In this document: piece by piece, positions 656 to 18,777 of the stretch
Position numbering within the stretch: the stretch's first letter is position 1
Layout of the letters: each line of letters begins with the position of its first letter
Assembly: GCA_048939765.1 (NCBI GenBank)
Contig: JBHLPF010000045.1
Coordinates: 1 to 21,536 of the forward strand
Length of the DNA: 21,536 nt
Reading direction: 5' to 3'
Source of the DNA: Promethearchaeota archaeon
GTDB taxonomy: Archaea > Asgardarchaeota > Thorarchaeia > Thorarchaeales > Thorarchaeaceae
Position numbers and translations under genes: made by a program
The notes under the pieces: generated by a model
What the model was told of the DNA's origin: nothing
Seen by the model: only the letters and a program-made list of their open reading frames with translations
Databases searched by the model: none

Positions 656-1456
656 TCACTCAGCGTTCCGAGTGCCTTCCATTGAATGAACTACCTTGTA
701 CCAGCGTTGTTTAGTACCAACCTTTGCTCGACGCTTCCAAGACCCTGATTTCGGTTCATCCTCAATCATCTGATGGAGCTTCTTCGCTCTGGACAAAACC
801 AGTTCTTTCTGCTCCTCGGTGATTTCCGGAACAGTGGGTACGAAGTTAAAGAACTTCTTGAGGTTCTCCGTCACAGTATAGTAGAATCCCCAGTCTTCTG
901 AGAGAATCTTGGCAATATACTTTCCATTGACCTGAGTGTCATCATTCTCAGTACTTACATCGTGGGCAAGGAAAGTGATGATGAGGTCCTTCAAGTCCTT
1001 TGCATTGATCTCGACAATCTGTGTCTTCTCGAGGAATAATTCCGCCAAGGGGATCGTAGGCCTATCCACTTCTAGTCGGTTTTTCTTCTTGAAATCAATG
1101 TTATGACAGAATTCAAGCTGATCGTAGAACACATCTACTTTCCGCTCGCGTTCCACATCTATGAACAGATCCCTTAGAGTTGTAGCACGGGCAAACCCGG
1201 GAGGAACCCAGTGGTAGCCCAGTTCATCTCTGAACAGGTTCCGTAGTTTCCTTTGGTGTTTGTAGTAGCTTATGAAGTCAATATCAGTGACCTCTCTACC
1301 CATCTTGATATGAAGGTCAGTATACTCTGGACTCTTCAATCTGAATGCAAGGCAGCCAATCAGTCGTAGTGGAACATCCATTTCAGCTGCTGCTTTCTCA
1401 ATCCGCATTGCTTCCTCCATAAAGTCATCAAGAATTGGACCGTATTTCCCAATCAA
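656..1456 (-). CDS. Nucleotidyltransferase-fold protein (Pol-beta superfamily, AbiEii-like motifs), copy A
   Basis: Motifs LIGCLA...REVTDIDF (Gly plus DxD), third acidic residue in KVDVF, and late K...KDxxD (LEKTQIVEINAKDLKD). TTG start with GAGGAG upstream. Clear paralog of 18007..18777. Confidence 0.8.
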   Translation of the reverse strand: MIGKYGPILDDFMEEAMRIEKAAAEMDVPLRLIGCLAFRLKSPEYTDLHIKMGREVTDIDFISYYKHQRKLRNLFRDELGYHWVPPGFARATTLRDLFIDVERERKVDVFYDQLEFCHNIDFKKKNRLEVDRPTIPLAELFLEKTQIVEINAKDLKDLIITFLAHDVSTENDDTQVNGKYIAKILSEDWGFYYTVTENLKKFFNFVPTVPEITEEQKELVLSRAKKLHQMIEDEPKSGSWKRRAKVGTKQRWYKVVHSMEGTRNAE

Positions 1457-1686
1457 ATCTCTGTGCTCCTCTAGAATTCAAGGGTCTTATTACAATGTCC
1501 GATGTTTCACGTCGCATTAATATCTTGTGACATGGCATAGACTCCACTATTTTCTAAATCTACTTAAGCCGCGAAATGTGTTGCACCATTAAACTTTAAA
1601 CAAGGCTAAACTGTCACATCGACAATCTGTGATGCGTCCAGGACTCTGAGGAGTTCACAACACAGAAACGAGCACGAGGTAATTAG

Positions 1687-2628
1687 ATGAGGATATTCCA
1701 AGCCTGTGACCCACACGGAAGCCAACAGACCTGGGAGAAGATGTGTCGGGCACCGAAGGCGTTCAAAGCAGATGTAGCGATGATGTGCGGTGACCTAACC
1801 GGGAAAGCAATTATGCCGATCATCCAGGAGAAAGAAGACCGATGGTACGCCAACCCCAGAGGACAGAAGAAGACCTTCAAGAAGCAAAAAGACCTTGACA
1901 AGTTTATCAAATTCACCAAGGACGAGGGGTTCTATCCAGCAATACTCACACCGGATGAGTTGGCACATCTTCAGGAGACACCTGGAGAGATCACCAAGCT
2001 CTTTGAGAAGCTAATGGTGGAGAGAATTCAGGAATGGATGGACATGGCAAATGACCGTATACCCGAGGAGATAATGGTCGTTGTGAATCCAGGAAATGAT
2101 GACGACTATGTCATTGATGATATAATAAAGAATGACGAGAGAATCATATATCCTTTACAGAGGGTAGTTGACGTTCATGGATATCCCATGATAAGTCTGG
2201 AATGGGTGAACTCCACACCCTGGAACACTCATAGAGAATGCCCTGATGAGGAGCTGCTCGATAAGCTAGAAGCGGAATTTGCACGCCTTGACACAAATGA
2301 TTACTCAAACGTACTCTGCAACTTCCATGACCCCCCATTCAACTCAGGGCTAGATGTAGCACCTCAGCTGACTGAGGACCACCGCGTGGCGAAGGCAGGT
2401 GCACATGAGATTATGGTACCAGTTGGGAGCAAGTCGGTCCGAGCTGTGATCGAGAAATATCAGCCATTGTTGGGTATGCATGGTCATATTCATGAGTCGG
2501 TTGGCTACAGGAAGATTGGGCGAACGCTCTGCGTTAATCCAGGCTCAGAGTACAGAGAAGGCATCTTGAAAGGATTCCTCATCACCATTGAAGATGGAGA
2601 GGTCCAAGCGGGCAGAGTAGAAATCTAG
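1687..2628 (+). CDS. Calcineurin-like metallophosphoesterase (Icc-related), copy A
   Basis: All five motif blocks are present: CDPHGS, CGDLTGK, PGNDD, FHDPP, HGHIHE, followed by VNPGS. GAGGT RBS before ATG 1687. Confidence 0.92.
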   Translation: MRIFQACDPHGSQQTWEKMCRAPKAFKADVAMMCGDLTGKAIMPIIQEKEDRWYANPRGQKKTFKKQKDLDKFIKFTKDEGFYPAILTPDELAHLQETPGEITKLFEKLMVERIQEWMDMANDRIPEEIMVVVNPGNDDDYVIDDIIKNDERIIYPLQRVVDVHGYPMISLEWVNSTPWNTHRECPDEELLDKLEAEFARLDTNDYSNVLCNFHDPPFNSGLDVAPQLTEDHRVAKAGAHEIMVPVGSKSVRAVIEKYQPLLGMHGHIHESVGYRKIGRTLCVNPGSEYREGILKGFLITIEDGEVQAGRVEI

Positions 2629-2644
2629 TGCTGACTAACAGCAA

Positions 2645-2681
2645 GGGAAGTGCTTTTGCACTTCCTTCATTCTTGTTTTTT
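2645..2681 (+). terminator. Hairpin plus T-tract terminator after phosphoesterase A
   Basis: GGAAGTGC-TTTT-GCACTTCC perfect 8-bp stem (2646-2665) followed by TCTTGTTTTTT, just downstream of the stop at 2628. Confidence 0.75.
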
Positions 2682-2734
2682 CGCTCCATTGGAAATATAT
2701 AGAACCAAACACAATCTCAGTTTAAATCACTTTA

Positions 2735-3868
2735 ATGGGGATCGGGACAATCATGACTTTGATATTGAAAACGAGGACTGATGTGGACGACCTCACCACA
2801 GGATGCACATTCTTTGGAACTGGCGGAGGCGGTTCAAAGCAGCTTGGACTTAATATGCTCTATCCTCACATGGATGCTGGGAAGACAATAGAGATTGTTG
2901 ACGTGGAGCATGTGAAGAATGATGACTGGGTAGCTTGTTCTTACTATTCGGGAACTATTGCGCCTCCTACTCCAGAAATTGAGGAATTGAGAACTCGATT
3001 TCCTTGGAAGTACTATGAGCAAGAACTGGCTGCCGGTCTCAAAGCGCTGGAGGATCACATGGGAGTGAAATTTGCTGCGGTAGCACCCTTTGAGCTTGGA
3101 GGAGTGAATACACCAGCACCAATAGATTCAGCAGTAAAACACGGCATTCCATGTGTTGACGGTGATTATTCTGCAAGAGCTGTTCCGGAGATTTGCCAGA
3201 ACACAGTCTGCATCAAGGGGTTTTCGATGGCGCCCATGGCTCTTATCGATTGGTTTGGTAACAGGAGTATCGTCGAACATGTCATCAACTTTGAGATGGG
3301 TGAGCGAATCTCCAAGGCGCTGAGTGAAGCTGCCTGGGGAAGGTTGGGAAATGTTGCTTTTCCATTGAAAGGTTCGGATTTCCATGATGCCATTATCCCA
3401 GGTACACTGACCAAAAGCTATGAAGTTGGAAAGATGATTAGAGAGAGTCGTGAAACGGGCGATGATCCTGCTGACAAAATCGTTGAGAATGTAGGAGGCT
3501 GGATTCTCTTCCGAGGAGAGGTCGTGGATAAGACCTGGGAGAATCGGGCAGGTTACATGTGGGGTGAAACTAAGATCAAAGGGAGCGGCATAAAGCCCGG
3601 ATCTGAGCTTCGAGTCTGGTTCAAGAATGAAAACCATGTCACGTGGCTTGATGACGAACCTTGGGTCATGAGCCCAGATATCATTGAGATAATTGATGCA
3701 AAATCTGGCGAGCCAATAACAAACACAGACATCAAATCTGGTGACAAGGTCAGTGTAGTCGGAATGAAATCAGAACAGGTATTTCGTAGCACTGAAGGTT
3801 TGAAGGTTCTAGGTCCACGTCATTTTGGTTTTGACCTCGACTACAAGCCCATGGAGGATTTGGTCTAG
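2735..3868 (+). CDS. DUF917 family protein (copy 2)
   Basis: Motifs FFGTGGGGS, PFELGGVNT, VDGDYSARAVPE, FKNEN, SPDII and C-terminal GPRHFG. The start may be the second ATG (MTLILK). Confidence 0.9.
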   Translation: MGIGTIMTLILKTRTDVDDLTTGCTFFGTGGGGSKQLGLNMLYPHMDAGKTIEIVDVEHVKNDDWVACSYYSGTIAPPTPEIEELRTRFPWKYYEQELAAGLKALEDHMGVKFAAVAPFELGGVNTPAPIDSAVKHGIPCVDGDYSARAVPEICQNTVCIKGFSMAPMALIDWFGNRSIVEHVINFEMGERISKALSEAAWGRLGNVAFPLKGSDFHDAIIPGTLTKSYEVGKMIRESRETGDDPADKIVENVGGWILFRGEVVDKTWENRAGYMWGETKIKGSGIKPGSELRVWFKNENHVTWLDDEPWVMSPDIIEIIDAKSGEPITNTDIKSGDKVSVVGMKSEQVFRSTEGLKVLGPRHFGFDLDYKPMEDLV

Positions 3869-3882
3869 GACTTCTGATATAT

Positions 3883-3909
3883 TGACTCGTTTCCATTGGA
3901 ATCGAGTCA
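3883..3909. terminator. Near-perfect palindrome between convergent genes; possible bidirectional terminator
   Basis: TGACTCG-t-TTCC-att-GGAA-t-CGAGTCA lies between the stops at 3868 (+) and 3919 (-). Confidence 0.55.
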
Positions 3910-3918
3910 TCTTTCTTC

Positions 3919-4626
3919 CTACAGCCTGATTTTAACAACGTAGTTTTTCCTGAATCCGCTTGGAACTTTCATAACCTCAATTCCGTTGTAGTCATCGTTG
4001 AAGAATTTGATTAGATTCTTTTCAGGATCCTCACCGCTTTTTCGCATAAGGCTTGAAATATGTTGAATTAGAATCTGGACCCATTTCTTTAGATGACGCT
4101 TTTCGTTGGAAACCAACGCTTGATTCTGTTCCACATAATCGTGAATCAACCATGCGATCTTTCTGTTATACCAAGCTGAAGTTAGCCAGCTGACTAGCAT
4201 CATCGCAACAGCAAAAATGGCGATGGGTACGCCAATAGGAGCTAACCAGTCAAGTTGGAACGCATAGGTAAACAAAAGGATAGGAACAGCAATGGTGAGT
4301 GATGCCATCCCGATGAAAGACATGGCCTGTTTGCGATTCAATGAAGACTCAACACCAGGCACTTTCGGGCCAATGGCTGCAAGCTTAGTGAGAACCCTTC
4401 TCATGGTTCCCCACTGCTGAACGAAGGTCCTAGGCAATTCTCCTTCTCCGACTTTCTTATCGATGAAGCCCAGATCATAGGTTCTTTGGATTCTGTAGCC
4501 ATCCAACACTGTCAATAGATTCTTGCTGAATCTCAAATCCAGATTCGCAGGAGTGAATTGAAATTCGTCAAGCGATACCGAAGATGGCCGCTTTGCCTTT
4601 TTATCATGCTTTTCTCGGTGACTCAT
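3919..4626 (-). CDS. Uncharacterised two-TM membrane protein, copy A
   Basis: Central hydrophobic hairpin (FIGMASLTIAVPILLFTYAF / IGVPIAIFAVAMMLVSWLTS) between soluble N- and C-terminal domains. Paralog of 16251..16943. ATG 4626 is preferred (GAGGA upstream) over the ORF-track GTG at 4662. Confidence 0.82.
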   Translation of the reverse strand: MSHREKHDKKAKRPSSVSLDEFQFTPANLDLRFSKNLLTVLDGYRIQRTYDLGFIDKKVGEGELPRTFVQQWGTMRRVLTKLAAIGPKVPGVESSLNRKQAMSFIGMASLTIAVPILLFTYAFQLDWLAPIGVPIAIFAVAMMLVSWLTSAWYNRKIAWLIHDYVEQNQALVSNEKRHLKKWVQILIQHISSLMRKSGEDPEKNLIKFFNDDYNGIEVMKVPSGFRKNYVVKIRL

Positions 4627-4666
4627 CTTGCTAAGTCCTCTTAACGAGTGGCTCGCGGCCACATCT

Positions 4667-4687
4667 AATTAATGTTTACGATTAATT
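4667..4687. promoter_or_regulatory. AT-rich inverted repeat in a divergent promoter (back-to-back TATA-like boxes or operator)
   Basis: AATTAAT-GTTTACG-ATTAATT lies between the divergent starts at 4626 (-) and 4773 (+). Confidence 0.4.
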
Positions 4688-4772
4688 TGCGGGCATGTAC
4701 CAGCTTGTTTAAGAATGGGCTGTCAGAAAGACCGACTCGCCCTAAATCATGAATCATGGGGATATCTGAAGA

Positions 4773-5741
4773 ATGAGCACATATGACAGACTTCCGGAGA
4801 TTGAATATATTGGCGCTGATCCTTATGACGATAGACAAGAGCTCCAAATCAATTCAGAGCATGCAAGATTCATTCTTCCTCGTGAAAAGAGAAGGAAAAA
4901 GTATCTAGCTACATATGACACCGGTTGGAACGAGGTAATTTCCTTTGAAGTCTGCGAAGTGCATTACTGCAAGGATGATAAAACATGGCCGCTGTATGAG
5001 GAACTTCCTAATGACTTCGAGCCAATTGGGCCCGCCGGGATGCTGTTTCTGTTCTCGATGCCATACGGACGCGCAGTCTTTCCAATCTGGGCTATCTTTC
5101 CTTTGGAAGATGTGGCAACTGTAAAGGAGCTGGTTGAGGGGATTCTTGAACGTCCAAGTCTACCTGGATTGGCACATCATGGTACCGCTGCAGCAGTCAG
5201 ATACATTGTTGACCAGTGCGAGGTCATTGGACGTCATAGGGCGCAATGGTTTGATTGGTCAAAGAGAGGGCGTATGGCTAAACCAAATCCAAAATTCCGC
5301 GAGCGAGGACCCGATTATGTCTTCTGCAGGGAGGGGATGGCAATAGACTTCTACGGTGCTGGTGTGCAACTTGCTCAGATGTCCACGTTCTGGCCTTGGA
5401 GGCTTATTGATGGCATCTTCAATGATCATCATGAGTTCTCGATAAAGTACCAGTGGCATGAGGATGCCTATCAATATCAACAGCAGGTACTCGATAGTGA
5501 AGAGCGACAGAGAATTGTGAAAGATGCGAAAAAAGCGCTTGCGATGTATAGATCCTCAGATGATATTGAGGAGGTACTAACAATCAGACCTAGGTCCTTC
5601 CCTTCGCGGTTTCATAAATCGTGGGATAAGCTGGAAGCATTTTCAAGCAAGGCAAGCAGAAATCGATTTCCGCCCATATACGATTTTGCGGAAGAAGAGC
5701 CCTGGGAATCAGAGGAAAATGATGATAGCGCCATCTCCTAG
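4773..5741 (+). CDS. Hypothetical soluble protein, possibly with tandem PH-like domains
   Basis: 322-aa ORF filling the gap between two genes, with an acidic C-terminal tail and no recognised family motif. Confidence 0.75.
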   Translation: MSTYDRLPEIEYIGADPYDDRQELQINSEHARFILPREKRRKKYLATYDTGWNEVISFEVCEVHYCKDDKTWPLYEELPNDFEPIGPAGMLFLFSMPYGRAVFPIWAIFPLEDVATVKELVEGILERPSLPGLAHHGTAAAVRYIVDQCEVIGRHRAQWFDWSKRGRMAKPNPKFRERGPDYVFCREGMAIDFYGAGVQLAQMSTFWPWRLIDGIFNDHHEFSIKYQWHEDAYQYQQQVLDSEERQRIVKDAKKALAMYRSSDDIEEVLTIRPRSFPSRFHKSWDKLEAFSSKASRNRFPPIYDFAEEEPWESEENDDSAIS

Positions 5742-5832: not shown

Positions 5833-7371
5833 CTACTCTGGTGGAAGCTGTCCGAAGATAGCAGACATCTCGATGCCTTTGGCCTTGTTCTTGGCACCGT
5901 AATACATGTAGGCAATTTGACCAATCAGGTATACGATTACTGTGAACCAGACCTCGTAGAGGGCACCACCTGGTACGAATGCTATCATAGAATAGAAGAA
6001 TGCGCCGCCTGCAATCAGACCACCGATGGATATCAGTGGAATGCCCAGGAACTTCCATGCTCCGCTTCGCTCCCATAGCGTTGGCCTGTAGTACGGCAAT
6101 GATACCGCGGCTAGTGCCATCTGCCATCTGATGAAGACGTAGGTGAATGCTACGCCGATCAGGGCGTCGAGAGCAGTGCCTGTCGTAACCACTAGGAAGG
6201 TAGCAAAGGCTACTGTTCCAAGTGATAGAATCAACCAGAAGTACAGTGTAATGTGTGGAACATGGTACTTCGGATGGACACTTGCGAATGCTTCAGGACA
6301 GAACCTGTCCATTGCCATGGAATGCATTGGTCGGGTAACCCACAAGGCATTACTCGGGGAGTCCAAGACGCTAGCATAGATTGGACATAATATCACAAAC
6401 CACGCTAATGGATTAGCTCCGAGAATGACTGCAGCGTAGTTACCAAATCCTGGAAATACGCCTCCAGCAAAGTTGATCCCGTACAGATTAGCTCCCATGC
6501 TTGACTCGACTGCGAAGCCTGACAACAGGAAGAAGAAGGCGATGCCGGCCCATCCACCCAGATTGCTCAGGGGGATGTTTCTGCTCGGCTGCGCCACTTC
6601 ACCTGCCACTGGCATGATGAGGTATGGCCACATACCACCAACAGTAAGAATCAAAGCAGGGCCTACAGCTCCCCAGTCGAAGTTGACATACGCAGAGTTG
6701 TCGAATGCAGCGATTGGTGCCCAGGTACCTGCGCCCATTGTGTTCTCCCATACTGTCTGATTGATGGGAGTCGCTAGCATCACTAAATCTGCAACCAGCA
6801 ACGCAACAATGTTGATGATCCCTAGGATTATCACGAACCAGCCTAGCCATTTCACGCTGAGGTAGCTAAAGATGAATCCTACGAAGATCATAATAGCTGC
6901 TGCAACAAACAGTAGAACTGGATCAGATCCCAGAGCACTTGCTGCTGCAACAAGACCTGTGTTGCCTGTCGCTGTTCCAACAACTGTGAGACCGCCTGCG
7001 AAGATCTGTACCGCGAAGAAGCTTCCAGTGCCTCTAAAGACAGGATTGGTAATTACGGACCGCCAACCTTCCATCACACCAAAAATAGGACTGAGGCCTC
7101 TACCAGTAAAGTGGTAAGAAGCACCAGATCGTGGCATGGCAAGCATTAGACACATCAATGAGATTGCTTCAAAGAAGACAATAGCAGCACCAATAGAATA
7201 CATCGGTACAAGATGCGCACCTGCATACCATGATGAAACCTGAGGTCCAAAGTAGTGGAACCACGGTCCAAGAGTCAGTGCAATTGGAAGAATTAGGGCA
7301 AAGCCCGTACCTACTTCCTTCACAAGGCCGGAGCTTTCACGCACGAATAGGAGTTTTTGTTCCTCGCCCAT
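5833..7371 (-). CDS. APC-superfamily amino acid/amine permease, copy A
   Basis: About 12 or more hydrophobic segments. N-terminal LFVRESSGLVKE, AMPRSG, AGEVAQP, MAMDRFCP..F..VHPKYHVP and C-terminal LPPE. ATG 7371 with GGAG upstream is preferred over TTG 7386. Confidence 0.93.
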   Translation of the reverse strand: MGEEQKLLFVRESSGLVKEVGTGFALILPIALTLGPWFHYFGPQVSSWYAGAHLVPMYSIGAAIVFFEAISLMCLMLAMPRSGASYHFTGRGLSPIFGVMEGWRSVITNPVFRGTGSFFAVQIFAGGLTVVGTATGNTGLVAAASALGSDPVLLFVAAAIMIFVGFIFSYLSVKWLGWFVIILGIINIVALLVADLVMLATPINQTVWENTMGAGTWAPIAAFDNSAYVNFDWGAVGPALILTVGGMWPYLIMPVAGEVAQPSRNIPLSNLGGWAGIAFFFLLSGFAVESSMGANLYGINFAGGVFPGFGNYAAVILGANPLAWFVILCPIYASVLDSPSNALWVTRPMHSMAMDRFCPEAFASVHPKYHVPHITLYFWLILSLGTVAFATFLVVTTGTALDALIGVAFTYVFIRWQMALAAVSLPYYRPTLWERSGAWKFLGIPLISIGGLIAGGAFFYSMIAFVPGGALYEVWFTVIVYLIGQIAYMYYGAKNKAKGIEMSAIFGQLPPE

Positions 7372-7620: not shown

Positions 7621-8406
7621 CTACTCTTCGCTGGATAGACGCTCCCAGAATTCATCGTCCGGTATCAGAACCTCGACTTTTCTCTCTCTCACACCGGTGC
7701 GGCTCTCCAAGAGAACGTTAAGGCATATCTCAATGTCCATCAAGTGGACAGGAGGTACTGAAACCTTCACATCGGTACCTGCATAACCAAGAGCCTCGTT
7801 CTTTGCCTCAGGGGTAACAACACCATTCGATATGAGAACTCCCTGATTGGCCTTAAAGGTAGGCAGGGCGCCGCGAATTTCAAGTATTGTATCGCGATCT
7901 ATCTTCTCGTCAAGGCGGCATTTCTTTGCATACACAACAACAGGAGACCTCCCTCCATCGTCTCGCCAAGACGTTGTCATGACTATGATGTTGTTGTAGC
8001 GCCGGATAACCTCAGACTTCTCGACTCTGGCTCTGATGTTCAGAAGAATAATCTTCGCCAGTTCTTCAAATCCATGGATGTCAAGATTGGCAATCCTCTG
8101 CCGCATATCTCTGCGAGTGGCTAAGTTGAACTCTTCTGCACGAGAACGAACCTCTCTAATGAGGTCCTCATCAACGGCACCCTCACAGAGGTCATTGTAT
8201 TGATATAGGCCAGGTCGAATTCTAACGAAATAGGGTGGCCTATTGTCCTCTTCGGCTTGTTTTCTTTCAATAGATAGTGATGCAGAAACTGAAGCGGCAT
8301 CACGGCCAAGGGCCTCGGCAATCTTCCTATAATGTACGGGTTCAGTACGTGCGTGTGCGGCAAGCCACTCTTTCAACGTTAGCCGTTGTCCGTTTGTCTC
8401 AGTCAA
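7621..8406 (-). CDS. Winged-HTH (HARE-HTH-like) plus Mrr-like restriction-endonuclease-fold protein, probably inactive
   Basis: N-terminal EPVHYRKIAEAL...ASVSASL...YFVRIRPGLY fits a HARE-HTH pattern. The C-terminal part has an Mrr_cat pattern: FEEL...L, V.AKK, I.E.RGAL...ANQGVLIS.G..T.EAK.EA, V.L.D. Confidence 0.8.
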   Translation of the reverse strand: MTETNGQRLTLKEWLAAHARTEPVHYRKIAEALGRDAASVSASLSIERKQAEEDNRPPYFVRIRPGLYQYNDLCEGAVDEDLIREVRSRAEEFNLATRRDMRQRIANLDIHGFEELAKIILLNIRARVEKSEVIRRYNNIIVMTTSWRDDGGRSPVVVYAKKCRLDEKIDRDTILEIRGALPTFKANQGVLISNGVVTPEAKNEALGYAGTDVKVSVPPVHLMDIEICLNVLLESRTGVRERKVEVLIPDDEFWERLSSEE

Positions 8407-8617
8407 TTAGACCAGCCTTCTTTTCCCCAGTGATGGCAATATCCCTGCTTGATGTTTTGTTCAGCCCTGTTAAGGGTATATCACTCTTGTGCAAGTACGA
8501 AAGCTGCGCCCTGAAAATCCTTGTGGCGGCTAGAACACCTTCGTGCTTAAAGACCGTTCCGTCATACTTAACTTAAACTTTGGCTATCTTGACCTGAATG
8601 CTTGGGAGGTTTACGCA

Positions 8618-8908
8618 ATGACCGAGGTCTTTGTCAAACTCATGAATAAAGGGCTCAAGTCCCATGAGCACGACAAATTCAGCTTTGAAACTCAAGATGG
8701 TGCTACAGTCAGAGACCTAATCGACGACCTCCGCGAATCTTATGGGGAGAGGTTCGAGCCATACCTTGAAGAGAAAGGCAGCGGGAAGCTCCGAAGAGAT
8801 GCGATTGTCATTGTGAACGGCAAGAATATGGTGGCACATCAAGGAGAAAGGACAGAGCTTTCTCACGGAGACCTCGTTGTATTCATGATTGCTGCGGTTG
8901 GAGGATAG
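8618..8908 (+). CDS. MoaD/ThiS/SAMP-like ubiquitin-fold protein
   Basis: Motifs TVRDLI..L, IVIVNGKN, L..GDLV and C-terminal AVGG-stop. ATG 8618 follows GGAGGT. The ORF-track start at 8543 is probably too long. Confidence 0.9.
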   Translation: MTEVFVKLMNKGLKSHEHDKFSFETQDGATVRDLIDDLRESYGERFEPYLEEKGSGKLRRDAIVIVNGKNMVAHQGERTELSHGDLVVFMIAAVGG

Positions 8909-8916
8909 TCTACAAA

Positions 8917-10110: not shown

Positions 10111-11496
10111 TCAGAACTCCTCCTCTGGGATGAATATGCCACGTTGTAGGATATTCTTGGGATCTAGTGTCCGTTTCAGCGTCTTCAGCAATCGATAGTA
10201 ACCCGTATCTCGTTCGGCAACGAATTGACGAAGCCCGTCTCGACCGCCAATACCGTATGGAACTACCGGCCCAGCCAGCACAATTTCATCTATTTCATCA
10301 CACATCTTGACAAGCTCATCCCATTCTTCAGGCTCTTTGTAGTTAGTAACCATGAAAGCCAACCATCTGCGCGGAAGCACCTGTCCGCCGAATCCAGCTC
10401 TAGTGTACCCCCTCTTCTCAATTACCTCTTCCTTCCAAACCCTATACAGGAAAGAGATGTCATCAATTCTCAATGAACCTGAGCCGAAGAAGTGCCAAAC
10501 ACCAGTCTTGAAGAGGTCAGTGAGCCCAGTCAGAATACGGCCATAGTAGTCATCAGCTGGAGCTCGGTCCCCAATCTCACCGCCTAACTCTTTGATCTTA
10601 TCCTCAATTCGTTTCTTGCGATGTGCGACAATTTCTTTCTCATACCCAAAGATATCCATCATCAAGAAGAACACGTCAGGAGCGGTTGGATCAACCCACA
10701 GGTAGATTCCTTGAAGAAACTCATCACCAACATGCCGATTGATGAAATGCCCAAACTCAATCACCTCATCTAGCGTTGGCATAACTGCTGTCAATCGCTC
10801 GCTAATATCGACCGCAGGACGAATTCGTAGTGTTAATTCGGTACAGATTCCAAGGATTCCCTCTGCACCGATGAACATTCCAGCTAGGTCCGGTCCAAGG
10901 CATTGACGCTCAAACTTCCCTGCACTTGGCCAAGCTGCACTGCCCGTTTCCACAACATCGCCATTGGGCAAGACCATCTCCAAAGTTATGACATCTTGGT
11001 TCCCATGGAATCCGAATTTCGCCGTGGAATGCGGCCCTCCTCCTGCTTTCATTACCGAGCCGCCTACAGTCATGGCAGGACCGCCAGCTTCACTGCACAG
11101 ATAGGTCAGACCTTTTTCGCGGAGCTCTTGGTCAAGCTTGGCCCAAGTACAATTGGGTTGAACAGTTGCTACAAGGTCTCTCTTGTTTATGTCAATAATC
11201 TTGTTCATCCTACGCAAGTCTAGCATAATGCTTGGACCCGATACCTGAGGGAGAAAAGCATCCCAATGTGAGGTGCCCCCGCCGCGAACATATACCGGAA
11301 CATCAATATCATTGGCAATCCTCAAAACATCTTGAATCTCCTCGCGTGTTTCTGGCATCACTACGTGGCTTGGCATCTTTTGTTTCGCAGGACTAAGGTC
11401 TCTGCTGTATGGGATGATATCAAAGTCCTTGTCGGTTACCCTGTCGGAACCAACAACATTGACGAGAAGCTCTGTGATCTTCTTCATATCGACCAT
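10111..11496 (-). CDS. FAD-binding oxidoreductase, GlcD/Dld (VAO/PCMH) family
   Basis: P..VV.P.T.EE, VRGGGTS, LDLRRMNKI, TVGG, LEMVLPNG, GAEGILGI.TE, LK..LDPKNIL. ATG 11496 follows GGAGGT; the ORF track starts at 11526. Confidence 0.92.
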   Translation of the reverse strand: MVDMKKITELLVNVVGSDRVTDKDFDIIPYSRDLSPAKQKMPSHVVMPETREEIQDVLRIANDIDVPVYVRGGGTSHWDAFLPQVSGPSIMLDLRRMNKIIDINKRDLVATVQPNCTWAKLDQELREKGLTYLCSEAGGPAMTVGGSVMKAGGGPHSTAKFGFHGNQDVITLEMVLPNGDVVETGSAAWPSAGKFERQCLGPDLAGMFIGAEGILGICTELTLRIRPAVDISERLTAVMPTLDEVIEFGHFINRHVGDEFLQGIYLWVDPTAPDVFFLMMDIFGYEKEIVAHRKKRIEDKIKELGGEIGDRAPADDYYGRILTGLTDLFKTGVWHFFGSGSLRIDDISFLYRVWKEEVIEKRGYTRAGFGGQVLPRRWLAFMVTNYKEPEEWDELVKMCDEIDEIVLAGPVVPYGIGGRDGLRQFVAERDTGYYRLLKTLKRTLDPKNILQRGIFIPEEEF

Positions 11497-11641
11497 ATTC
11501 TGACCTCCGGCTAGAGAAACGGACATCGAATTCCGGCATTTAACGAGTAGGTGTGGACTGGGATTAATTAAGCACTCCGGTTTAAACTAGCTTAAAGCAC
11601 CAAACTGACTAATTTGCCATGGTCCTGACTTCTACGCTTCA

Positions 11642-11666
11642 TAGTCCCAATGAAGGAAAGGGACTA
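11642..11666 (-). terminator. Possible hairpin after the V4R-like gene
   Basis: TAGTCCC-N11-GGGACTA immediately after the stop at 11668, with no clear U-tract. Confidence 0.35.
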
Positions 11667-11667
11667 C

Positions 11668-12138
11668 TTACTTCTGCCATCTATAGATGCAGTGGTCATC
11701 TCCACGCATCATGCAAAGAGGGATGGTCATGGTGAGATCTGAGTCAACTGCCTGAGCAATGCCTTCATCAATCTTGCACACCCAATGGCAGATGTCTTCA
11801 TTTGCACCCTTTGCTCGGAAAGTGTCAATCCATGGACATGCCGTGACTTTGAGGTCAAGCACTCTATCTGATATATCAGCAATCTCCAATTCAAATCCGA
11901 AAAAGGGATGAGCAGCAGCAAAGAAGTCGTATATTGACCGAAGATCACCTTTTCTGAGGCCACCGCTCTTGAGACCATCCTCTCCTAATTCGATGCCATG
12001 AAGACGGTTTGCCTCGCCAAGTGCCTCAAGCCCTTTCTCACCGAATTGTTTCCTCACTGTTTCAACGTAGACAGTGTGTGCAGCAGCCACTGTAGACATG
12101 CCAACTTTTCTGACATCATCTGCTGATGGTTCTTCCAT
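11668..12138 (-). CDS. Small V4R / L-2-amino-thiazoline-4-carboxylate-hydrolase-like protein, copy 1
   Basis: Cys pattern VTACPW...ICHWVCKID...CMMRGDDHC. ATG 12138 follows GGAG; the ORF track starts at GTG 12147. Confidence 0.75.
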   Translation of the reverse strand: MEEPSADDVRKVGMSTVAAAHTVYVETVRKQFGEKGLEALGEANRLHGIELGEDGLKSGGLRKGDLRSIYDFFAAAHPFFGFELEIADISDRVLDLKVTACPWIDTFRAKGANEDICHWVCKIDEGIAQAVDSDLTMTIPLCMMRGDDHCIYRWQK

Positions 12139-12160
12139 ATTCAACACTCCTTCGTCTCTT

Positions 12161-13600
12161 CTATTTTCCTTTGGCTCGCTTTTCTATAATCTTACGCATC
12201 TCTGCTTCAACATCTTTGCCAAGAGGCTCAACCTCATGACTGGAGAGAATCTCTATGACTTGTTCTTTTGCTCTTTGGAACATGTCTTTTGAGCCTCTCT
12301 TCTCCCACTCAGGTCGAGAGGCCCTCTCTGTTAGTATAGGTTGCCAATGCTCCTCTAGAAGATGCTTCTTTGTAAATCTCAATGCCTCCGGCGTATTGAG
12401 ATAGTTCCTCTCATGTCCAACTGCAGCTATAATCTCTGCAGCAAGTGTTTCCTTTGTAATACGCATTCCCTTGGCAATACGCTTTATGGCACTGCAGATT
12501 TCGTTGCTAATGCCGAACATCTCATAGCTTGCAGTGACTCCTGCCTCCACTATTCCATACACCGCATCATGAACAACATCAGCACCGGCCAAAGTTGCTA
12601 CTAGCACATTGATTGTGTTCTCGTAGACAGCTTGATGATCAGGAATCTTTGAATCAATGACTCCTGCTGCACCATAGTAAGGTATGCCATAGTATCTTGC
12701 CATTTGTGAAAATGCTGCGTGAATTAATCCATTCTCTGGCGATCCATAGGCCGCCGTACCATATCTCTGGTCCAGGATTGTTGCACATGACCCCCACATG
12801 ATTGGAGTTCCGGGCCCTACAAGCTGTGTTAGCACCACTATCACATGGTTCTCGACTATCCCTTGCACTATCGTACCTGCCAACGTGACTGGAGCACTCG
12901 CGCTGGCAAGCGCTCCAGTGCTGATGTCAAATGGAATCCTGTATTTTGCACATTCCAGGATCATATCAATGATTTCTGGAGTGTACTTCAGTGGTGGGAC
13001 ATTATTGAATCCTGTATCAATGAAAGATGGATTCTTGATGAACTCCTCTTTGCCCCCAGCCGCAATCATTGACATTTTGATCACGTCTCTCCAACCCTGG
13101 GGAGTCAATGCGACCAGACTGAGGTGCTTCTCAGCATTCTTGAACATGGCCAAGGCCATTTCTTGTTCCCAGACGGTTTTGGACACATCTTGTGGAAGAA
13201 TGTTTGGCTTGATGTAGTCTACAGTGGGAAAGTAATCTGCAAGAAGTGTGAACTCCTCTAGATCCTTCAACGTGGATAGTCTTCGTTCACCCGTTTCCAG
13301 ATCAATAGTATAATGAGCTCCAAAAGCATTCGTATAATATGACGCCCCATCCCCAATCACGAAATTATACTTCGGGTTTCGAGATGCCATCAAATGCCTT
13401 CCAGGTGATTTCTGCAAAGCATCCTGCAACAGGCTCTCAGGAATCTTTACTACTTTGGACTTTTCCTCTACATCAGCTCCTGCATCCCCGAGAAGTTTCA
13501 GTGCCTTGTCATGTTGGACCATAACACCAACATTCTCAAGAACTTCCATCGCTGCAACATGGATGTCGGATATCTCGTTTCTACCTAGCAAATTAAACAT
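12161..13600 (-). CDS. mttB: Trimethylamine methyltransferase (MttB) superfamily protein, pyrrolysine-free
   Basis: IH.AA.EVLE.VG, GERR.STL.D, SAPVTLAGTIVQ..E, PGTP..WG, YGSPE, ARYYGIP, DSK.PD.QA.YE. No in-frame TAG. ATG 13600 follows GGAGGA; the ORF track starts at TTG 13621. The symbol denotes the family, not the substrate. Confidence 0.93.
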   Translation of the reverse strand: MFNLLGRNEISDIHVAAMEVLENVGVMVQHDKALKLLGDAGADVEEKSKVVKIPESLLQDALQKSPGRHLMASRNPKYNFVIGDGASYYTNAFGAHYTIDLETGERRLSTLKDLEEFTLLADYFPTVDYIKPNILPQDVSKTVWEQEMALAMFKNAEKHLSLVALTPQGWRDVIKMSMIAAGGKEEFIKNPSFIDTGFNNVPPLKYTPEIIDMILECAKYRIPFDISTGALASASAPVTLAGTIVQGIVENHVIVVLTQLVGPGTPIMWGSCATILDQRYGTAAYGSPENGLIHAAFSQMARYYGIPYYGAAGVIDSKIPDHQAVYENTINVLVATLAGADVVHDAVYGIVEAGVTASYEMFGISNEICSAIKRIAKGMRITKETLAAEIIAAVGHERNYLNTPEALRFTKKHLLEEHWQPILTERASRPEWEKRGSKDMFQRAKEQVIEILSSHEVEPLGKDVEAEMRKIIEKRAKGK

Positions 13601-13617
13601 GCGATTCTTCCTCCAAT

Positions 13618-14268
13618 TCAATTCGCGCCTACCAGCTTCTTCACGAGTTCAACTGCACTTACTGCATCTCCCGCCCAGCCATCAGCTCCTATTTCGATTG
13701 CCCACTCATTGGTTGTGGGTGCCCCTCCAATAATGACTTGCACCTTTTCCTTCAGTCCAGCATCGATGAGCTTCTCAATAACCTCTTTTTGTGCCGGCAT
13801 CGTAGCTGTAAGAAGAGAAGACAGGCCGAGGATGTCGGGTTTATGTTCCTTCACCTTATCGATGAATACTTCCGAGGCGACGTCCTCACCAACATTGATC
13901 ACTTCAAAGCCCTCTGCTTCTAGAAGTGTAGCAACAATATCCTTGCCGATGCTATGGATATCACCTGCGACTGTGCCAAGCAAGACCTTTCCAAGTGTCT
14001 TCATCTCAGCGTTGGATGCTTTAATCTCTGGCAGTAAGACCGTCATCCCCGCCTTCATAGCATCGCCGGCCATGATTAGCTCGACCAGAAAGACATCACC
14101 TCTGCTGAACTTGTCTCCAACTTTCTTCACGCCTTTTGCCAGTCCATTTGTGATGGCTTCGAGTGGGGGGATGTTTTGCTCTAATGATTTCTTTGCGAGA
14201 TTCTTGCATTGGTCAGAATCTCCTTCAATGACAGCGTTTTCCAAATCCTCGAATATTGAGGGACTCAT
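13618..14268 (-). CDS. Methyltransferase cognate corrinoid (B12-binding) protein, MttC/MtbC-like
   Basis: N-terminal cap domain (GL..G...VGD.F..G..FL.EL), DxHxxG motif (GDIHSIGK), SSLLT and IIGGAP. ATG 14268 follows AGGAGGA. An in-frame ATG at 14346 is an alternative start. Confidence 0.95.
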   Translation of the reverse strand: MSPSIFEDLENAVIEGDSDQCKNLAKKSLEQNIPPLEAITNGLAKGVKKVGDKFSRGDVFLVELIMAGDAMKAGMTVLLPEIKASNAEMKTLGKVLLGTVAGDIHSIGKDIVATLLEAEGFEVINVGEDVASEVFIDKVKEHKPDILGLSSLLTATMPAQKEVIEKLIDAGLKEKVQVIIGGAPTTNEWAIEIGADGWAGDAVSAVELVKKLVGAN

Positions 14269-14293
14269 GTCGTTTCTCCTCCTGTAAGTGACA

Positions 14294-14332
14294 CAAGCAT
14301 GAATGCACACAACATGGTGCATAACTTGCTTG
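14294..14332 (-). promoter_or_regulatory. Extended inverted repeat / leader hairpin upstream of the corrinoid operon
   Basis: CAAGCA (14294-14299) pairs with TGCTTG (14327-14332), enclosing ATGCAC (14303-14308) / GTGCAT (14317-14322). Confidence 0.5.
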
Positions 14333-14447
14333 AACGCTTCACGCATCTCGGCCTAGAATTTGCCGGTCTTATATCTCTAGCCGTTCTTCTTTAACAAGGG
14401 ACTCTATCCTCGATTTAACTCCTATTATAATCACGATGCTTCAGTTT

Positions 14448-14485
14448 GAAAAAAAGAAAGGGAAGCCTGAGGTGATCCTCAGGCT
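14448..14485 (-). terminator. Hairpin plus U-tract terminator of APC permease B
   Basis: AGCCTGAGG-tgat-CCTCAGGCT perfect 9-bp stem (14464-14485). On the minus strand it is followed by TCCCTTTCTTTTTTT. Confidence 0.78.
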
Positions 14486-14494
14486 ATGGAGGAT

Positions 14495-16075
14495 CTACTC
14501 AGGTGATAGTGACGTGTATATTGCTTCGAGTTCTATGTTCTGCTTCTGTAACCGCCGTGCAAAATACACAAACCATAACGCCGAGAATCCATATTGCACG
14601 CACATCGAGATAATCGACAGGAATGCCGCTCCTTGGAAGAATCCAATCAGCAGGAATAACGCCAGTGGTAATATGATTACTCCAAGTAGCGAAACCAAGG
14701 CAAATCCCGCGATTTCAGGTTGCGCTCTTATACTCCCTTCATATAACGGCCGCCGCATGAAGGGCAATTGTAACGCAGCCATTGACTGGAATATCATCTC
14801 TATGCCCCACAGTCCCACCAGTGAAGTGACAACGGCCAAGAAGCCACTAAGGTTTGGAACTGCATAAGCAAATGCAAACGGAGCACCAAAGATAAAGTAG
14901 TATAGAATTGCATAGGTCGGTGTGTGATACTTCGAGAGCTTGCCAAAGATTGATGGCATCATTCTGTCAAGCGATGCCTCGAAGAATCCTCTCGTGACCC
15001 ATGCCATGTTGATTGGAGTAGCTGTGAGTCCAATGACTACTGGCGATAGTAATATCCATCCAGAAATTAACGGATTCGCAGCTAACACCGCAGTGAATGT
15101 CCCTAAGCCTCCTTGGAAGACACCCGTTTGTGTCAAATTGCCTGATGCTGCCGCCACACCATATTCACTAGAGAAAGTCCCAAAGACCCCTTGGAATAGT
15201 CCAGCACCTGCTGCTAACAATCCAGCTAGAATGAGCCCACCCAGAAGCTGTGAGATCACTAGGTTCTTTGCCGGATCTGAAACCTCTCCACCATAAAGCA
15301 GGATAAGATATGGCCACGTTAAGCCTATGGGCCACACCGTTGCCAACAGTGTCATTTCTATGCTAAACGCCGGCGCCGCATACCCTGCAGCAGCGGCCAC
15401 TGTTTGCACTTCTGCGTATGCTCCTGCACCCCAAACTGCATCCCAGCGGCCTTGAACAGCAGTTGTGGGAGTACCGAGGAGTACGAAGAGTGCCATTATC
15501 CATCCTATTGTGGAGAACACTCCTCCCGCCATCTGTATCCTGGGTTCCATCTTGAGTAATGGCCCAAAGTATGCAATTACTGAGAATAATGCCATTAATA
15601 GAATCGAGATAGTAACAAGCACCATCGGGCTCTGTGTGGAGAAGGTGGTCCCGAGTCCTTGCATTGCGGCATTATTTGTGACTGCACCCCACTGAGCGAA
15701 TGCAGCGCCCAGGAATACAAGAAAGAGGTAGAATTCACTTGTCTTTATGATGGGATTAGCTATTATTCCACGCCAAACCGCAATTGTCCCTGCAACTGGA
15801 TTGAATCCTCTAGCAGAGATTTGGTATAAGCCAGAAGAACGAGGCATGGCCATAGACAGGAGTGTCATCATGAGGGTATACAGGAGCATGAAGAACATAC
15901 CGATTCCCCATGTCATGCCAGCATTGATACCCGGATACATATCCTGTAGAATGCCAACAAATAGCCATTGATACGTTCCTAGACTTGCACCAATGATTGC
16001 GAACAGAGAGGTCCATGTACCGAAATACTTGGTCAGCCCTGAGGTTGGCCTTAGAAAGAGCACTTCTTGTGACAT
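14495..16075 (-). CDS. APC-superfamily amino acid/amine permease, copy B
   Basis: Polytopic membrane protein. LFLRPTSGLTK, AMPRSSG, GGEVSDP, SLDRMMP..FGKL.KYHTP and C-terminal LSPE. Shares WPY.I and WVTR with copy A. Confidence 0.93.
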   Translation of the reverse strand: MSQEVLFLRPTSGLTKYFGTWTSLFAIIGASLGTYQWLFVGILQDMYPGINAGMTWGIGMFFMLLYTLMMTLLSMAMPRSSGLYQISARGFNPVAGTIAVWRGIIANPIIKTSEFYLFLVFLGAAFAQWGAVTNNAAMQGLGTTFSTQSPMVLVTISILLMALFSVIAYFGPLLKMEPRIQMAGGVFSTIGWIMALFVLLGTPTTAVQGRWDAVWGAGAYAEVQTVAAAAGYAAPAFSIEMTLLATVWPIGLTWPYLILLYGGEVSDPAKNLVISQLLGGLILAGLLAAGAGLFQGVFGTFSSEYGVAAASGNLTQTGVFQGGLGTFTAVLAANPLISGWILLSPVVIGLTATPINMAWVTRGFFEASLDRMMPSIFGKLSKYHTPTYAILYYFIFGAPFAFAYAVPNLSGFLAVVTSLVGLWGIEMIFQSMAALQLPFMRRPLYEGSIRAQPEIAGFALVSLLGVIILPLALFLLIGFFQGAAFLSIISMCVQYGFSALWFVYFARRLQKQNIELEAIYTSLSPE

Positions 16076-16250
16076 CTAATCTCTCCCTCTATTTCTTATG
16101 ACCTTCTCCGAACTTAAATCAGAGAAGATGAATCGCCAATGAAGGTGTCCCACGTAATAAGAGTTCCCGTCTTTATTTAATATGATGACTGTGATGTTTA
16201 AAGTCTATTAATAGTCCTTAGAATTTCAAAGCATGAGATATTAGGAGACT

Positions 16251-16943: not shown

Positions 16944-16966
16944 CCTAATTCACCCTCTTAAATATA

Positions 16967-17917
16967 CTAAGCCGTCACGCTGACTGCTACCACCTCATCC
17001 CCCAGCTTCTCAGGCAGATCAATAACAAAAGCGCTCAGCATGCCCTGCGTATACTTAGAGCCTGGATTAACACAGAGGGTACGACCAATATGTTCCATTC
17101 CTACTGATTCATGAATGTGTCCATGGAGACCCAGGAGCGGCTTATATTTCTCGAAAGATTCACGAACGCTCTTACTCCCAACAGGAACCATTTCAGGAGC
17201 ACCATAGCGGACATTTACCTGCTGCTTGTCATCCAGTTTGGGTGCTAGGTCAATCATTGTCCCATAGGGAGGGGCATGAAAGTTGCAGACGAGATTCTCA
17301 TGTGAGCTGAGTCGACTGAATTCTTTCTCCAGCCTGACCATTAATTCATCCTCAGGGCACTCACGCGGCGTATCCCAAGGTGTAGAATTCACCCATTCGC
17401 AGGAAATCATCTGATGTCTATCATCAAGATCCACGACTGTTTCAAGGGACTGCGTGATTCTGCTGCTTTTCCTAATGAGTTCATCAATTTCCAATGCATC
17501 GTCATTTCCAGGACTCACTATGACCTTGATTTCGTCAGGAATCTTCTCCTCAATGAGATTGATCCAATATTCCATTCGTTCTAGCATCAGCTTCTGAAAA
17601 AGGGATTTTACTTTCTCTGGGGAAGCTTGAAGTTCCTCTAGTTCTGGCTCAGTTGAGAAGAACCAATAGAACCCTCGTTTCTCATAGATATCTTTAGCCC
17701 TTCGAAGGTCCTTCTCAGACTTGTACCTCTCTTTTCGTCCCCATGGTGATGACCACCAGACGCCCGGTTTTTCCTCGACGAGGGGCACAACAGCTTTCCC
17801 GGTAAGATCGCCGCACATCATGACGACATCACAGTTGTAGGCTTCGTGGACTTTCACCATCTTGCGTAGAACTGGTACACTTCCGTGAGCATCGCAGGAG
17901 AAAAAGATGCGGGTCAA
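16967..17917 (-). CDS. Calcineurin-like metallophosphoesterase (Icc-related), copy B
   Basis: CDAHGS, CGDLTGK, PGNDD, FHAPP, HGHIHE, VNPGS. The true start is probably TTG 17917 (MTRIFF), which follows AGGAGGT and matches the MRIF start of copy A. The ORF track extends to 17989. Confidence 0.92.
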   Translation of the reverse strand: MTRIFFSCDAHGSVPVLRKMVKVHEAYNCDVVMMCGDLTGKAVVPLVEEKPGVWWSSPWGRKERYKSEKDLRRAKDIYEKRGFYWFFSTEPELEELQASPEKVKSLFQKLMLERMEYWINLIEEKIPDEIKVIVSPGNDDALEIDELIRKSSRITQSLETVVDLDDRHQMISCEWVNSTPWDTPRECPEDELMVRLEKEFSRLSSHENLVCNFHAPPYGTMIDLAPKLDDKQQVNVRYGAPEMVPVGSKSVRESFEKYKPLLGLHGHIHESVGMEHIGRTLCVNPGSKYTQGMLSAFVIDLPEKLGDEVVAVSVTA

Positions 17918-17941
17918 GATTAAACCTCCTAAAGCCAGCGG

Positions 17942-17960
17942 CCGAAATAGATATTTAAAC
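17942..17960. promoter_or_regulatory. Putative BRE/TATA element in the 89-bp divergent spacer
   Basis: CCGAAA followed by the palindromic TTTAAA (17954-17959), roughly midway between the starts at 17917 (-) and 18007 (+). Confidence 0.5.
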
Positions 17961-18006
17961 ATTACAGAACTCATGCGATGATTTGCCATTCCTCGAAGTG
18001 TTCCGC

Positions 18007-18777
18007 ATGGAAGAAGAGAAAGGAAATCAACAAGTGTTCGTTGACGAAGCCCTTAGAATCATCGATGAAGCAAACAAGCAAGGACTCATTCTTAGACTCA
18101 TGGGGGCTATAGCAATCAGACTTCACAGTCCTGACTATTCATATCTGCATGAGAAACTGGGTAGGTCCATTACTGACATAGATTATGTTGCATATGAGAA
18201 ACAGTCATCGAGATTAGAGAAATTCTTTGAAAGCCAGAATTACTCCAGAAGAATGCTCTCATTTAGCTTCGCACTGGGAGGAAGAATGATCTTTACGAAT
18301 AATTTGGATGGACGACATGTAGATGTCTTTCTTGATCGATTGGAGATGTGTCACAAGATAGAGTACAAGAAGAGGCTGGAGATCGATAGTCCAACCGTAC
18401 CTCTAGCTGAATTGCTGCTCCAGAAGATGCAGATCGTGAAGATTAGCGAGAAGGACATCATCGATACCACCATGCTAATCTTGGCTCACGAGATTGGTGA
18501 TACAGATGAGAATACAATCAACACTGGATACATAGCTGAGATACTCTCCAAGGAGTGGGGATTCTTCTATACAGTTACCACAAATCTGAGAAAAGTGGCT
18601 TCTCTGATGCGCGAGTTCAAGGTTCTCAAGGAGGAAGAAAAGGAAACCGTCAGCTCTCGTATTGATGAGCTTCTTCAGAGGATTGAGGACAAGCCAAAGA
18701 GCAGATCCTGGAAGATGAGAGCCAGAGTTGGGACTTCAAAGAAGTGGTACAAAGAAGTTGATACTCCTGGAGCCTAA
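18007..18777 (+). CDS. Nucleotidyltransferase-fold protein (Pol-beta superfamily, AbiEii-like motifs), copy B
   Basis: LMGAIA...GRSITDIDY, HVDVF, LQKMQIVKISEKDIID. Paralog of 656..1456. ATG 18007 is preferred over 17983. Confidence 0.8.
   Translation: MEEEKGNQQVFVDEALRIIDEANKQGLILRLMGAIAIRLHSPDYSYLHEKLGRSITDIDYVAYEKQSSRLEKFFESQNYSRRMLSFSFALGGRMIFTNNLDGRHVDVFLDRLEMCHKIEYKKRLEIDSPTVPLAELLLQKMQIVKISEKDIIDTTMLILAHEIGDTDENTINTGYIAEILSKEWGFFYTVTTNLRKVASLMREFKVLKEEEKETVSSRIDELLQRIEDKPKSRSWKMRARVGTSKKWYKEVDTPGA

Follow-up and report, generated by a model that had tools for sequence, protein, structure and literature searches.

Described systems and the Thorarchaeota locus

In the GlnD/GlnK (PII)/AmtB and GlnE/glutamine synthetase systems, a nucleotidyltransferase with the DNA polymerase beta (Pol-beta) fold is paired with a hydrolase that removes nucleoside monophosphate (NMP). 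APC-type secondary transporters rank amongst the commonest nutrient carriers, and to our knowledge none has a dedicated nucleotide-transfer and phosphodiesterase pair. The window analysed here, the whole of a 21.5-kb contig (C91) from a Thorarchaeota metagenome-assembled genome (MAG; 3.37 Mb, 88.5% complete), contains two copies of a module in which a putative nucleotidyltransferase (NT) and a calcineurin-like metallophosphoesterase (MPE) accompany an APC permease. NT, MPE and a permease of one special APC subfamily make up the core of the module; a protein with two transmembrane helices (2TM), encoded in both copies, lies outside the core. The NT–MPE pair is inherited with this one permease subfamily in approximately half of the sampled Asgard genomes, in an eighth of those of Anaerolineae, in Bathyarchaeia and in members of several bacterial phyla. 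No description of the module emerged from literature searches on the gene combination, PF14907 and DUF917, in agreement with the original prediction, which knew of no characterized system of this composition.

By analogy, the nearest known logic is that of GlnD/PII/AmtB and GlnE/glutamine synthetase. There too a Pol-beta-fold NT goes with an NMP-removing hydrolase (NT and MPE of the module are fused in some lineages), and in GlnD/GlnK/AmtB the enzyme pair is likewise genetically tied to a membrane transporter. The hydrolase of the module is, however, of the metallophosphoesterase type, where the known systems use an HD domain or a second NT domain; the module lacks PII and an ACT sensor domain, and its transporter is of the APC rather than the Amt type. 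Neither PII nor any other known target family is present in or near the modules. RelA/SpoT homologues resemble the NT–MPE fusions described below in carrying nucleotide-transfer and hydrolase domains on one polypeptide, but the domain families of the module differ, no (p)ppGpp-type chemistry is indicated, and the structural match of the NT to Rel synthetase has a Z score of 7.6.

Two paralogous copies in the window

The original prediction recognized the same four gene families twice in this DNA, and each of the eight genes is an open reading frame (ORF) at the position it gave. The two copies, with the spacers between their divergent genes, are as follows.

656–1456, minus strand: NT_A, 266-aa putative Pol-beta-fold nucleotidyltransferase, ANT(2'')/LnuA/MenT-like; no Pfam family
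1457–1686: NT_A/MPE_A divergent spacer, 230 bp, with a TTTAAA element read from the sequence
1687–2628, plus strand: MPE_A, 313-aa calcineurin-like metallophosphoesterase with a GNDD motif and an insert of ~100 aa; weak Pfam Metallophos_2/_3
3919–4626, minus strand: TM2_A, two-helix membrane protein; conserved N- and C-terminal parts, cytosolic
5833–7371, minus strand: APC_A, APC superfamily permease, C-terminus ...GIEMSAIFGQLPPE; Pfam AA_permease, 54.3 bits
14495–16075, minus strand: APC_B, paralogous permease of the same subfamily, C-terminus ...NIELEAIYTSLSPE; hidden Markov model E 1e-170 in its own genome
16251–16943, minus strand: TM2_B, two-helix membrane protein; same strand as MPE_B and 24 nt downstream of it
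16967–17917, minus strand: MPE_B, 316-aa metallophosphoesterase; Pfam Metallophos_2, 31.9 bits
17918–18006: MPE_B/NT_B divergent spacer, 89 bp, with a TTTAAA element read from the sequence
18007–18777, plus strand: NT_B, 256-aa nucleotidyltransferase paralogue; start at residue 9 of a longer ORF

The shorter starts chosen originally for TM2_A (4626), APC_A (7371), MPE_B (17917) and NT_B (18007) match those of homologues, and the protein atlas entry for NT_B also begins at residue 9 of the longer ORF. Pairwise BLASTP of A against B identifies all four families as true, well-diverged paralogues: NT (E 5e-76, 47% identity), MPE (E 2e-112, 50%), 2TM (E 8e-25, 30%) and permease (E 9e-42, 27% across the full length). 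By this sequence comparison, the similarity of all four gene pairs is far above chance. The genome contains exactly two NTs, two MPEs of the module family and two permeases of the module subfamily, all of them on this contig.

Gene order and intervening genes differ between the copies, as had been observed. The NT and MPE genes are divergently oriented in both, and we infer a promoter role for the spacers that separate them, each of which contains TTTAAA. In copy B the MPE, 2TM and permease genes share a strand and look like an operon that runs into the genes for a corrinoid protein and an MttB-family methyltransferase. Copy A is interspersed with DUF917 enzymes, a 322-aa protein of no known family and an Mrr-like protein.

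Linkage and co-occurrence in archaea and bacteria

With one genome scanned per species, the NT has at least 576 relatives, and 80 loci were taken for gene maps. When the window proteins are mapped onto these loci, the NT, MPE and APC permease lie side by side, in variable order, in Thorarchaeota, Bathyarchaeia, Heimdallarchaeota, Nitrososphaerales, Chloroflexota, Actinomycetota, Desulfobacteraceae and a proteobacterium. Linkage was counted for the 25 NT genes that are flanked on each side by 4 kb or more of sequence and are not Thorarchaeota orthologues: within 6 kb of the NT there is an MPE in 22/25, a permease in 24/25 and a 2TM protein in 4/25. The original suggestion that co-retention is selected, and not left over from a recent duplication, is borne out by this adjacency across many lineages of archaea and bacteria. 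The module's catabolic neighbours vary by lineage and include methyltransferases, aminotransferases, FGGY kinases, amidohydrolases and creatinase.

Presence in genomes follows the same pattern. Amongst 121 Asgard genomes the NT is found in 53, the MPE in 54, the permease in 54 and all three in 51; the same families have all three, and the exceptions are MAGs that are 76–91% complete. Copy numbers in Asgard genomes track one another, one genome (G025) giving seven NT, seven MPE and six permease matches. The corresponding figures for 101 Anaerolineae genomes are 18, 14 and 12, with all three genes in 12; they share a contig in 10 of these 12, and in the other two the genes lie at contig ends. 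Because the genomes are related to one another, these counts are given without a significance test. The scoring of co-occurrence and neighbourhood that had been proposed for these families thus finds NT, MPE and permease nearly always together in the sampled Asgard and Anaerolineae genomes.

Fusions, and one enzyme pair with many permeases

Proteins in which an NT is joined to an MPE form six clusters at 90% identity (P0269–P0272, P0276 and P0278), drawn from NCBI, JGI, ENA and Logan records. They are 578–596 aa long with the NT N-terminal to the MPE, and in P0269, which was aligned, both sets of catalytic residues are intact. Five of the clusters are closely related and have a variable 20-residue linker. 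In a Planctomycetota locus (L086), two small genes (144 and 157 aa) and a permease bearing the C-terminal tail described below are found 3.7 kb from an NT–MPE fusion; the small genes are likened only by size and position to the small-protein pair found elsewhere. In P0273 (860 aa), an MPE is joined to the N-terminus of a permease, which in the usual 12-helix APC topology would be on the cytoplasmic side. Two other apparent fusions are likely artefacts: a permease–MPE reading in L054 comes from a frameshifted contig, and a protein combining GCV_T with an MPE (P0274) from a contig full of fragmented genes.

In one Asgard family (f19) the module genes are unlinked. A 97% complete genome of this family (G070) has one canonical NT and one MPE, as against at least four dispersed tail-bearing permeases. 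A divergent pair of NT-like and MPE-like genes lies near one of these permeases, and the MPE adjoins a relative of the ~160-aa soluble member of the small-protein pair.

The nucleotidyltransferase

No Pfam (E <= 0.01), NCBIfam or PADLOC model matches either NT copy, and a sequence-profile search of the NT against solved structures found nothing meaningful. Despite this, the original assignment to the nucleotidyltransferases is well founded, in view of a confident AlphaFold2 model (pLDDT 90, pTM 0.87) and invariant G, DxD and D residues. AlphaFold2, Foldseek and VIA-align agree on an alpha-beta-alpha-beta-alpha-beta NTase core fold. Foldseek returned only nucleotidyltransferases (JHP933, MenT1, ANT(2'')-Ia and LnuA), and VIA-align gave Z scores of 11.9 for ANT(2'')-Ia, 11.7 for MenT1, 10.1 for LnuA, 9.8 for JHP933 and 8.6 for TglT. 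From the model and the Foldseek and all-against-all structural matches, the NT is assigned to the Pol-beta-fold NTases. As modelled, it belongs to a branch that includes small-molecule O-nucleotidyltransferases as well as tRNA-modifying toxins.

In an alignment of 16 archaeal and bacterial sequences G34, D58, D60 and D108 are invariant, and a K144...K153-D154..D157 block is also present. The hG[GS] turn, the [DE]x[DE] pair and the third carboxylate are retained in the fusion protein P0269 too. With its catalytic acids retained, the NT looks active. The family is large and unannotated (2637 clusters at 50% identity, E <= 1e-3), and its archaeal and bacterial members are 41–51% identical.

ANT(2'')-Ia and LnuA have the small two-domain layout and catalytic acids of the NT, but are only 14–16% identical to it, and these resistance enzymes stand alone, with no phosphoesterase or permease partner. 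The MenT/AbiEii (DUF1814) proteins match the NT in fold (Z 8.3–11.7) and have the hG, DxD, D and K...KD..D layout in common with it. The NT differs from them in having no DUF1814 Pfam match and no antitoxin gene, and in its stable inheritance with a permease, and nothing suggests toxicity. Its neighbours are the MPE, permease, 2TM protein and DUF917 enzymes, and no AbiEi or MenA antitoxin was found adjacent to it. PF14907 is carried by only 19% of one look-alike atlas cluster.

In several Thorarchaeota genomes there is a third NT paralogue that has diverged further (E about 1e-52 to 1e-57; G037:C116:104233-104955, G098:C155, G103:C3 and G116:C33), with no MPE match on the same contig. P0279 (708 aa) combines a Fic (AMPylase) domain with a distant relative of the NT (28% identity), and P0203 (396 aa) is a member of the NT family with an N-terminal MarR-type helix-turn-helix. 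Both proteins are a hint that side branches of the NT family may act on proteins or in regulation.

The metallophosphoesterase

Pfam supports the original family calls for the MPE and the permease, though weakly. MPE_B scores 31.9 bits against Metallophos_2 (cut-off 27) and 22.8 against Metallophos (cut-off 21.5), while MPE_A, at 24.9 bits against Metallophos_2, is under the cut-off of 27. The MPE has all five calcineurin-like motifs (DxH, GD, GNx, H and GHxH), and its seven metal ligands (D8, H10, D36, N137, H214, H267 and H269) are invariant in 16 aligned sequences. With all of these ligands retained, it looks likely to be active.

Motif III is GNDD, and an insert of ~100 residues separates motifs II and III. 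As in metallophosphodiesterases of the YfcE/MJ0936 and Rv0805 types, the seven metal ligands are kept and motif III is of the GN(C/D)D type, without the histidine found in GNH; matches to Pfam Metallophos_2 and NCBIfam YfcE are weak. The MPE differs from these types in its insert and in its marginal similarity to solved structures, the sequence matches (aq_1956, LpxH, YfcE and Rv0805) reaching E 5e-4 at best.

The permease subfamily and its C-terminal tail

Against the Pfam AA_permease model, APC_A scores well above the cut-off of 24.6 and APC_B, at 26.3 bits, falls just below a cut-off of 27. The permease has about 12 hydrophobic segments and ordinary APC motifs (MPRSGG.Y, GE and R...DR..P). 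The subfamily is marked by a tail, +xx+G[IV][DE]hxxh[FY]x[EQ][ILV]PP[EDA], which lies exactly at the C-terminus in 33/33 aligned members and is also present in P0273 and in the Planctomycetota permease of L086. A third APC protein of the Thorarchaeota genome lacks it. The tail has no invariant hydroxyl residue and looks like a docking or regulatory element rather than a modification site.

Shared history of the module genes

Trees were built from 47 loci in which all three core genes are complete. The NT, MPE and permease trees each recover both Thorarchaeota clades, A with 14 rows and B with 9, so that the proposed check of tree congruence pairs A with A and B with B throughout. Mantel correlations are 0.75 for NT–MPE, 0.71 for NT–APC and 0.93 for MPE–APC, with 0/2000 permutations as high; amongst the non-Thorarchaeota rows only, the MPE–APC correlation is 0.79.

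The best MPE tree unites A and B in a single clade (support 95), and the approximately unbiased (AU) test does not reject such a clade for the permease (p-AU 0.60) or the NT (p-AU 0.33). Most simply, the complete set of four genes would have been duplicated once, long ago, in the Thorarchaeota lineage, and none of the four then lost from either copy; the original argument for selection, which rested on such co-retention, holds. Separate origins of A and B had been read at first from the NT tree, with NT_B nearer to Bathyarchaeia than to NT_A; the AU tests gave this no support.

Possible mechanisms

The reading that we tentatively favour, without counting it as probable, is that the NT and MPE switch the permease complex by reversible nucleotidylation. 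The NT, cytoplasmic and of Pol-beta fold, would form an NMP-phosphodiester bond, and the MPE, of the diesterase type, would break it, the two acting as writer and eraser at the cytoplasmic face of the permease. The nucleotidylated component would be either the permease itself or its small partner in the membrane, which in Thorarchaeota would be the 2TM protein, and the conserved permease tail would be the docking site. Uptake of an organic amine or amino-acid-like solute could in this way be switched by the state of the cell. This switch is favoured because GlnD and RelA/SpoT offer precedents for opposing NT and hydrolase activities fused in one design, because the catabolic neighbours are chemically diverse while the NT is so well conserved across domains, because one enzyme pair can go with several permeases, as in G070, and because a subfamily-specific cytoplasmic tail needs a partner. 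The writer and eraser pairing put forward originally is strengthened by the NT–MPE fusions in which both active sites are kept, while the opposing action of the two enzymes is something that we infer.

Several points weigh against such a switch. The best structural neighbours of the NT are small-molecule enzymes and tRNA-modifying toxins, with no known protein-nucleotidylating enzyme amongst them. There is no invariant Ser, Thr or Tyr in the tail of the 33 aligned permeases, and the residues invariant throughout the permease belong to the ordinary APC motifs, with none identified as a target. P0273 is the sole MPE–permease fusion and lies on a 2.7-kb contig. Congruence between the trees of adjacent genes is expected from co-inheritance alone; moreover, amongst the non-Thorarchaeota rows, where the NT tree is poorly resolved, the NT correlations are weak (r 0.19, with 71/2000 permutations as high, and 0.17). 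Finally, consecutive metabolic steps would explain fusion and linkage just as well.

Those consecutive steps could be chemistry on the solute itself, an alternative that we consider doubtful. The NT would nucleotidylate a hydroxyl of an imported amine or amino-alcohol-like solute, trapping or activating it, and the MPE would cleave the NMP–solute diester to give the free solute, or its phosphate, to the catabolic enzymes. Nucleotide diesters and pyrophosphates are substrates of many metallophosphoesterases, LpxH and the CDP-alcohol hydrolases among them, and the folds nearest to the NT include the small-molecule O-nucleotidyltransferases ANT(2'')-Ia and LnuA. The location of the modules in catabolic gene clusters and the NT–MPE fusions agree with such a pathway, as does the high congruence of MPE and permease, with and without the Thorarchaeota rows, which would be expected if both follow the solute. 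However, the neighbouring genes are chemically diverse, yet the NT remains 41–51% identical between archaea and bacteria, and G070 has a single canonical NT–MPE pair for at least four permeases. Nucleotidylation followed by hydrolysis is also costly, we know of no precedent for it in uptake, and it gives the conserved cytoplasmic tail of the permease no role.

Vectorial nucleotidylation, which we regard as unlikely, would have the permease as a facilitator: a docked NT would capture the incoming solute as an NMP adduct, and the MPE would resolve the adduct. If true, this would be a nucleotide-driven group translocation, an undescribed mode of uptake, used by energy-limited anaerobes.

A local second messenger is distinctly less likely. 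The NT would make a signalling nucleotide and the MPE degrade it, with the permease or its small membrane partner as reader, much as cyclic di-AMP controls potassium transporters and as CBASS-type synthases are paired with effectors. RelA/SpoT, a synthetase and hydrolase in one polypeptide, would make sense of the NT–MPE fusions in these terms, and the lower structural matches of the NT include Rel synthetase and CD-NTases (Foldseek TM 0.22–0.29). Rv0805 and similar metallophosphoesterases are cyclic-nucleotide phosphodiesterases, and the MPE has a weak sequence match to Rv0805. The best fold matches of the NT are, however, acceptor-modifying transferases rather than cyclases, and a diffusible signal would produce cross-talk in a genome with up to seven complete modules (G025). 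Neither the permease nor the 2TM protein nor the small-protein pair has a known nucleotide-binding receptor domain, and no PADLOC model for CBASS matches the window proteins, whose context is catabolic.

A toxin–antitoxin or defence role, in which a MenT/AbiEii-like NT blocks tRNAs and the MPE is an enzymatic antidote, is highly improbable: although MenT1, MenT3 (TglT), MenT4 and JHP933 are amongst the best fold matches, the AbiEii-like KD..D motif is retained and PADLOC candidate PDC-S10 is faintly matched, no AbiEi- or MenA-type antitoxin was found nearby, synteny is stable and the genes are 60–95% identical across Thorarchaeota genera, unlike defence islands, the NT–MPE pair is tightly tied to one permease subfamily and in one case fused to it, and the surrounding genes are catabolic. 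The description of the enzymes as defence-like parts is weak, the PADLOC hit being a faint, generic MPE match amidst catabolic neighbours.

Whichever mechanism is true, the module would represent a new principle for transport control or uptake energetics, as a post-translational switch, a means of solute trapping or a local signal. Its hosts, sediment archaea and Chloroflexota, are organisms whose substrate use is largely unknown.

Small membrane partners and accessory genes

The 2TM gene was correctly named: the AlphaFold2 model (pLDDT 85.6) has a helical hairpin at residues 104–134 and 141–179, preceded by three N-terminal helices and followed by a long helix and a small three-stranded sheet. 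D54, R57, W84, D224, Y225, R238 and Y241 are invariant, and Y56 nearly so. A fold search with the model returned generic helical hairpins only, with no informative structural relative, and the family is limited to archaea, matching only unnamed archaeal clusters in the protein atlas. Of the four-gene module originally described, the NT, MPE and permease recur as a core, whereas the 2TM protein is confined to Thorarchaeota and some Bathyarchaeia and is a lineage-specific accessory.

Elsewhere, in bacteria and some Bathyarchaeia, the permease is adjoined by an unrelated pair of small proteins, one of ~145 aa with two membrane helices and a soluble domain of ~90 aa, and one of ~160 aa that is soluble (L041, L048, L052, L053, L061, L069, L079 and L080). 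The two are fused in L080, and neither has a Pfam or Protein Data Bank (PDB) match. Neither the 2TM protein of Thorarchaeota nor the Mrr-like protein showed any relation to this pair in profile comparison.

Two further genes of copy A are of uncertain module membership.

4773–5741, plus strand: 322-aa protein of no known family, noted for its synteny
7621–8406, minus strand: 261-aa protein with a Pfam Mrr_cat domain

The Mrr_cat protein adjoins APC_A in most Thorarchaeota loci with enough flank, and NT_A in L019. Its synteny in L007–L031 holds even where the genes on its far side differ, and it may be a fifth component of the module or a regulator. The 322-aa protein, without a match in Pfam, NCBIfam or PDB, is encoded between TM2_A and APC_A in most of the copy-A loci of Thorarchaeota.

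Catabolic surroundings

Copy A adjoins DUF917 enzymes, and copy B adjoins an MttB-type methyltransferase and its corrinoid protein. Two DUF917 (S-Me-THD-like) paralogues, at 3–659 and 2735–3868, flank NT_A and MPE_A, and DUF917 genes also adjoin the module in four Bathyarchaeia loci (L044, L049, L056 and L066). The regions 8543–14346 and 18830–21534 encode an uninterrupted (non-pyrrolysine) MttB-family methyltransferase, a corrinoid protein, two ATC-hydrolase-like paralogues (11668–12147 and 18830–19351), a URO-D/MtaA-like methyltransferase and a zinc-dependent alcohol dehydrogenase, together with a GlcD/GlcF-like FAD plus CCG oxidoreductase and a ThiS-like protein. Both modules look as if they lie within one catabolic island. 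The genes of this island, with the DUF917 enzymes, suggest breakdown of an N-methylated, possibly sulfur-containing, heterocycle or of a betaine.

In L090 (ENA contig_2041, 11315–15080), a contig that holds many fragmented genes, an MPE of the module family adjoins an aldehyde dehydrogenase and a CCG plus FAD_binding_4 pair of the type found in the window.

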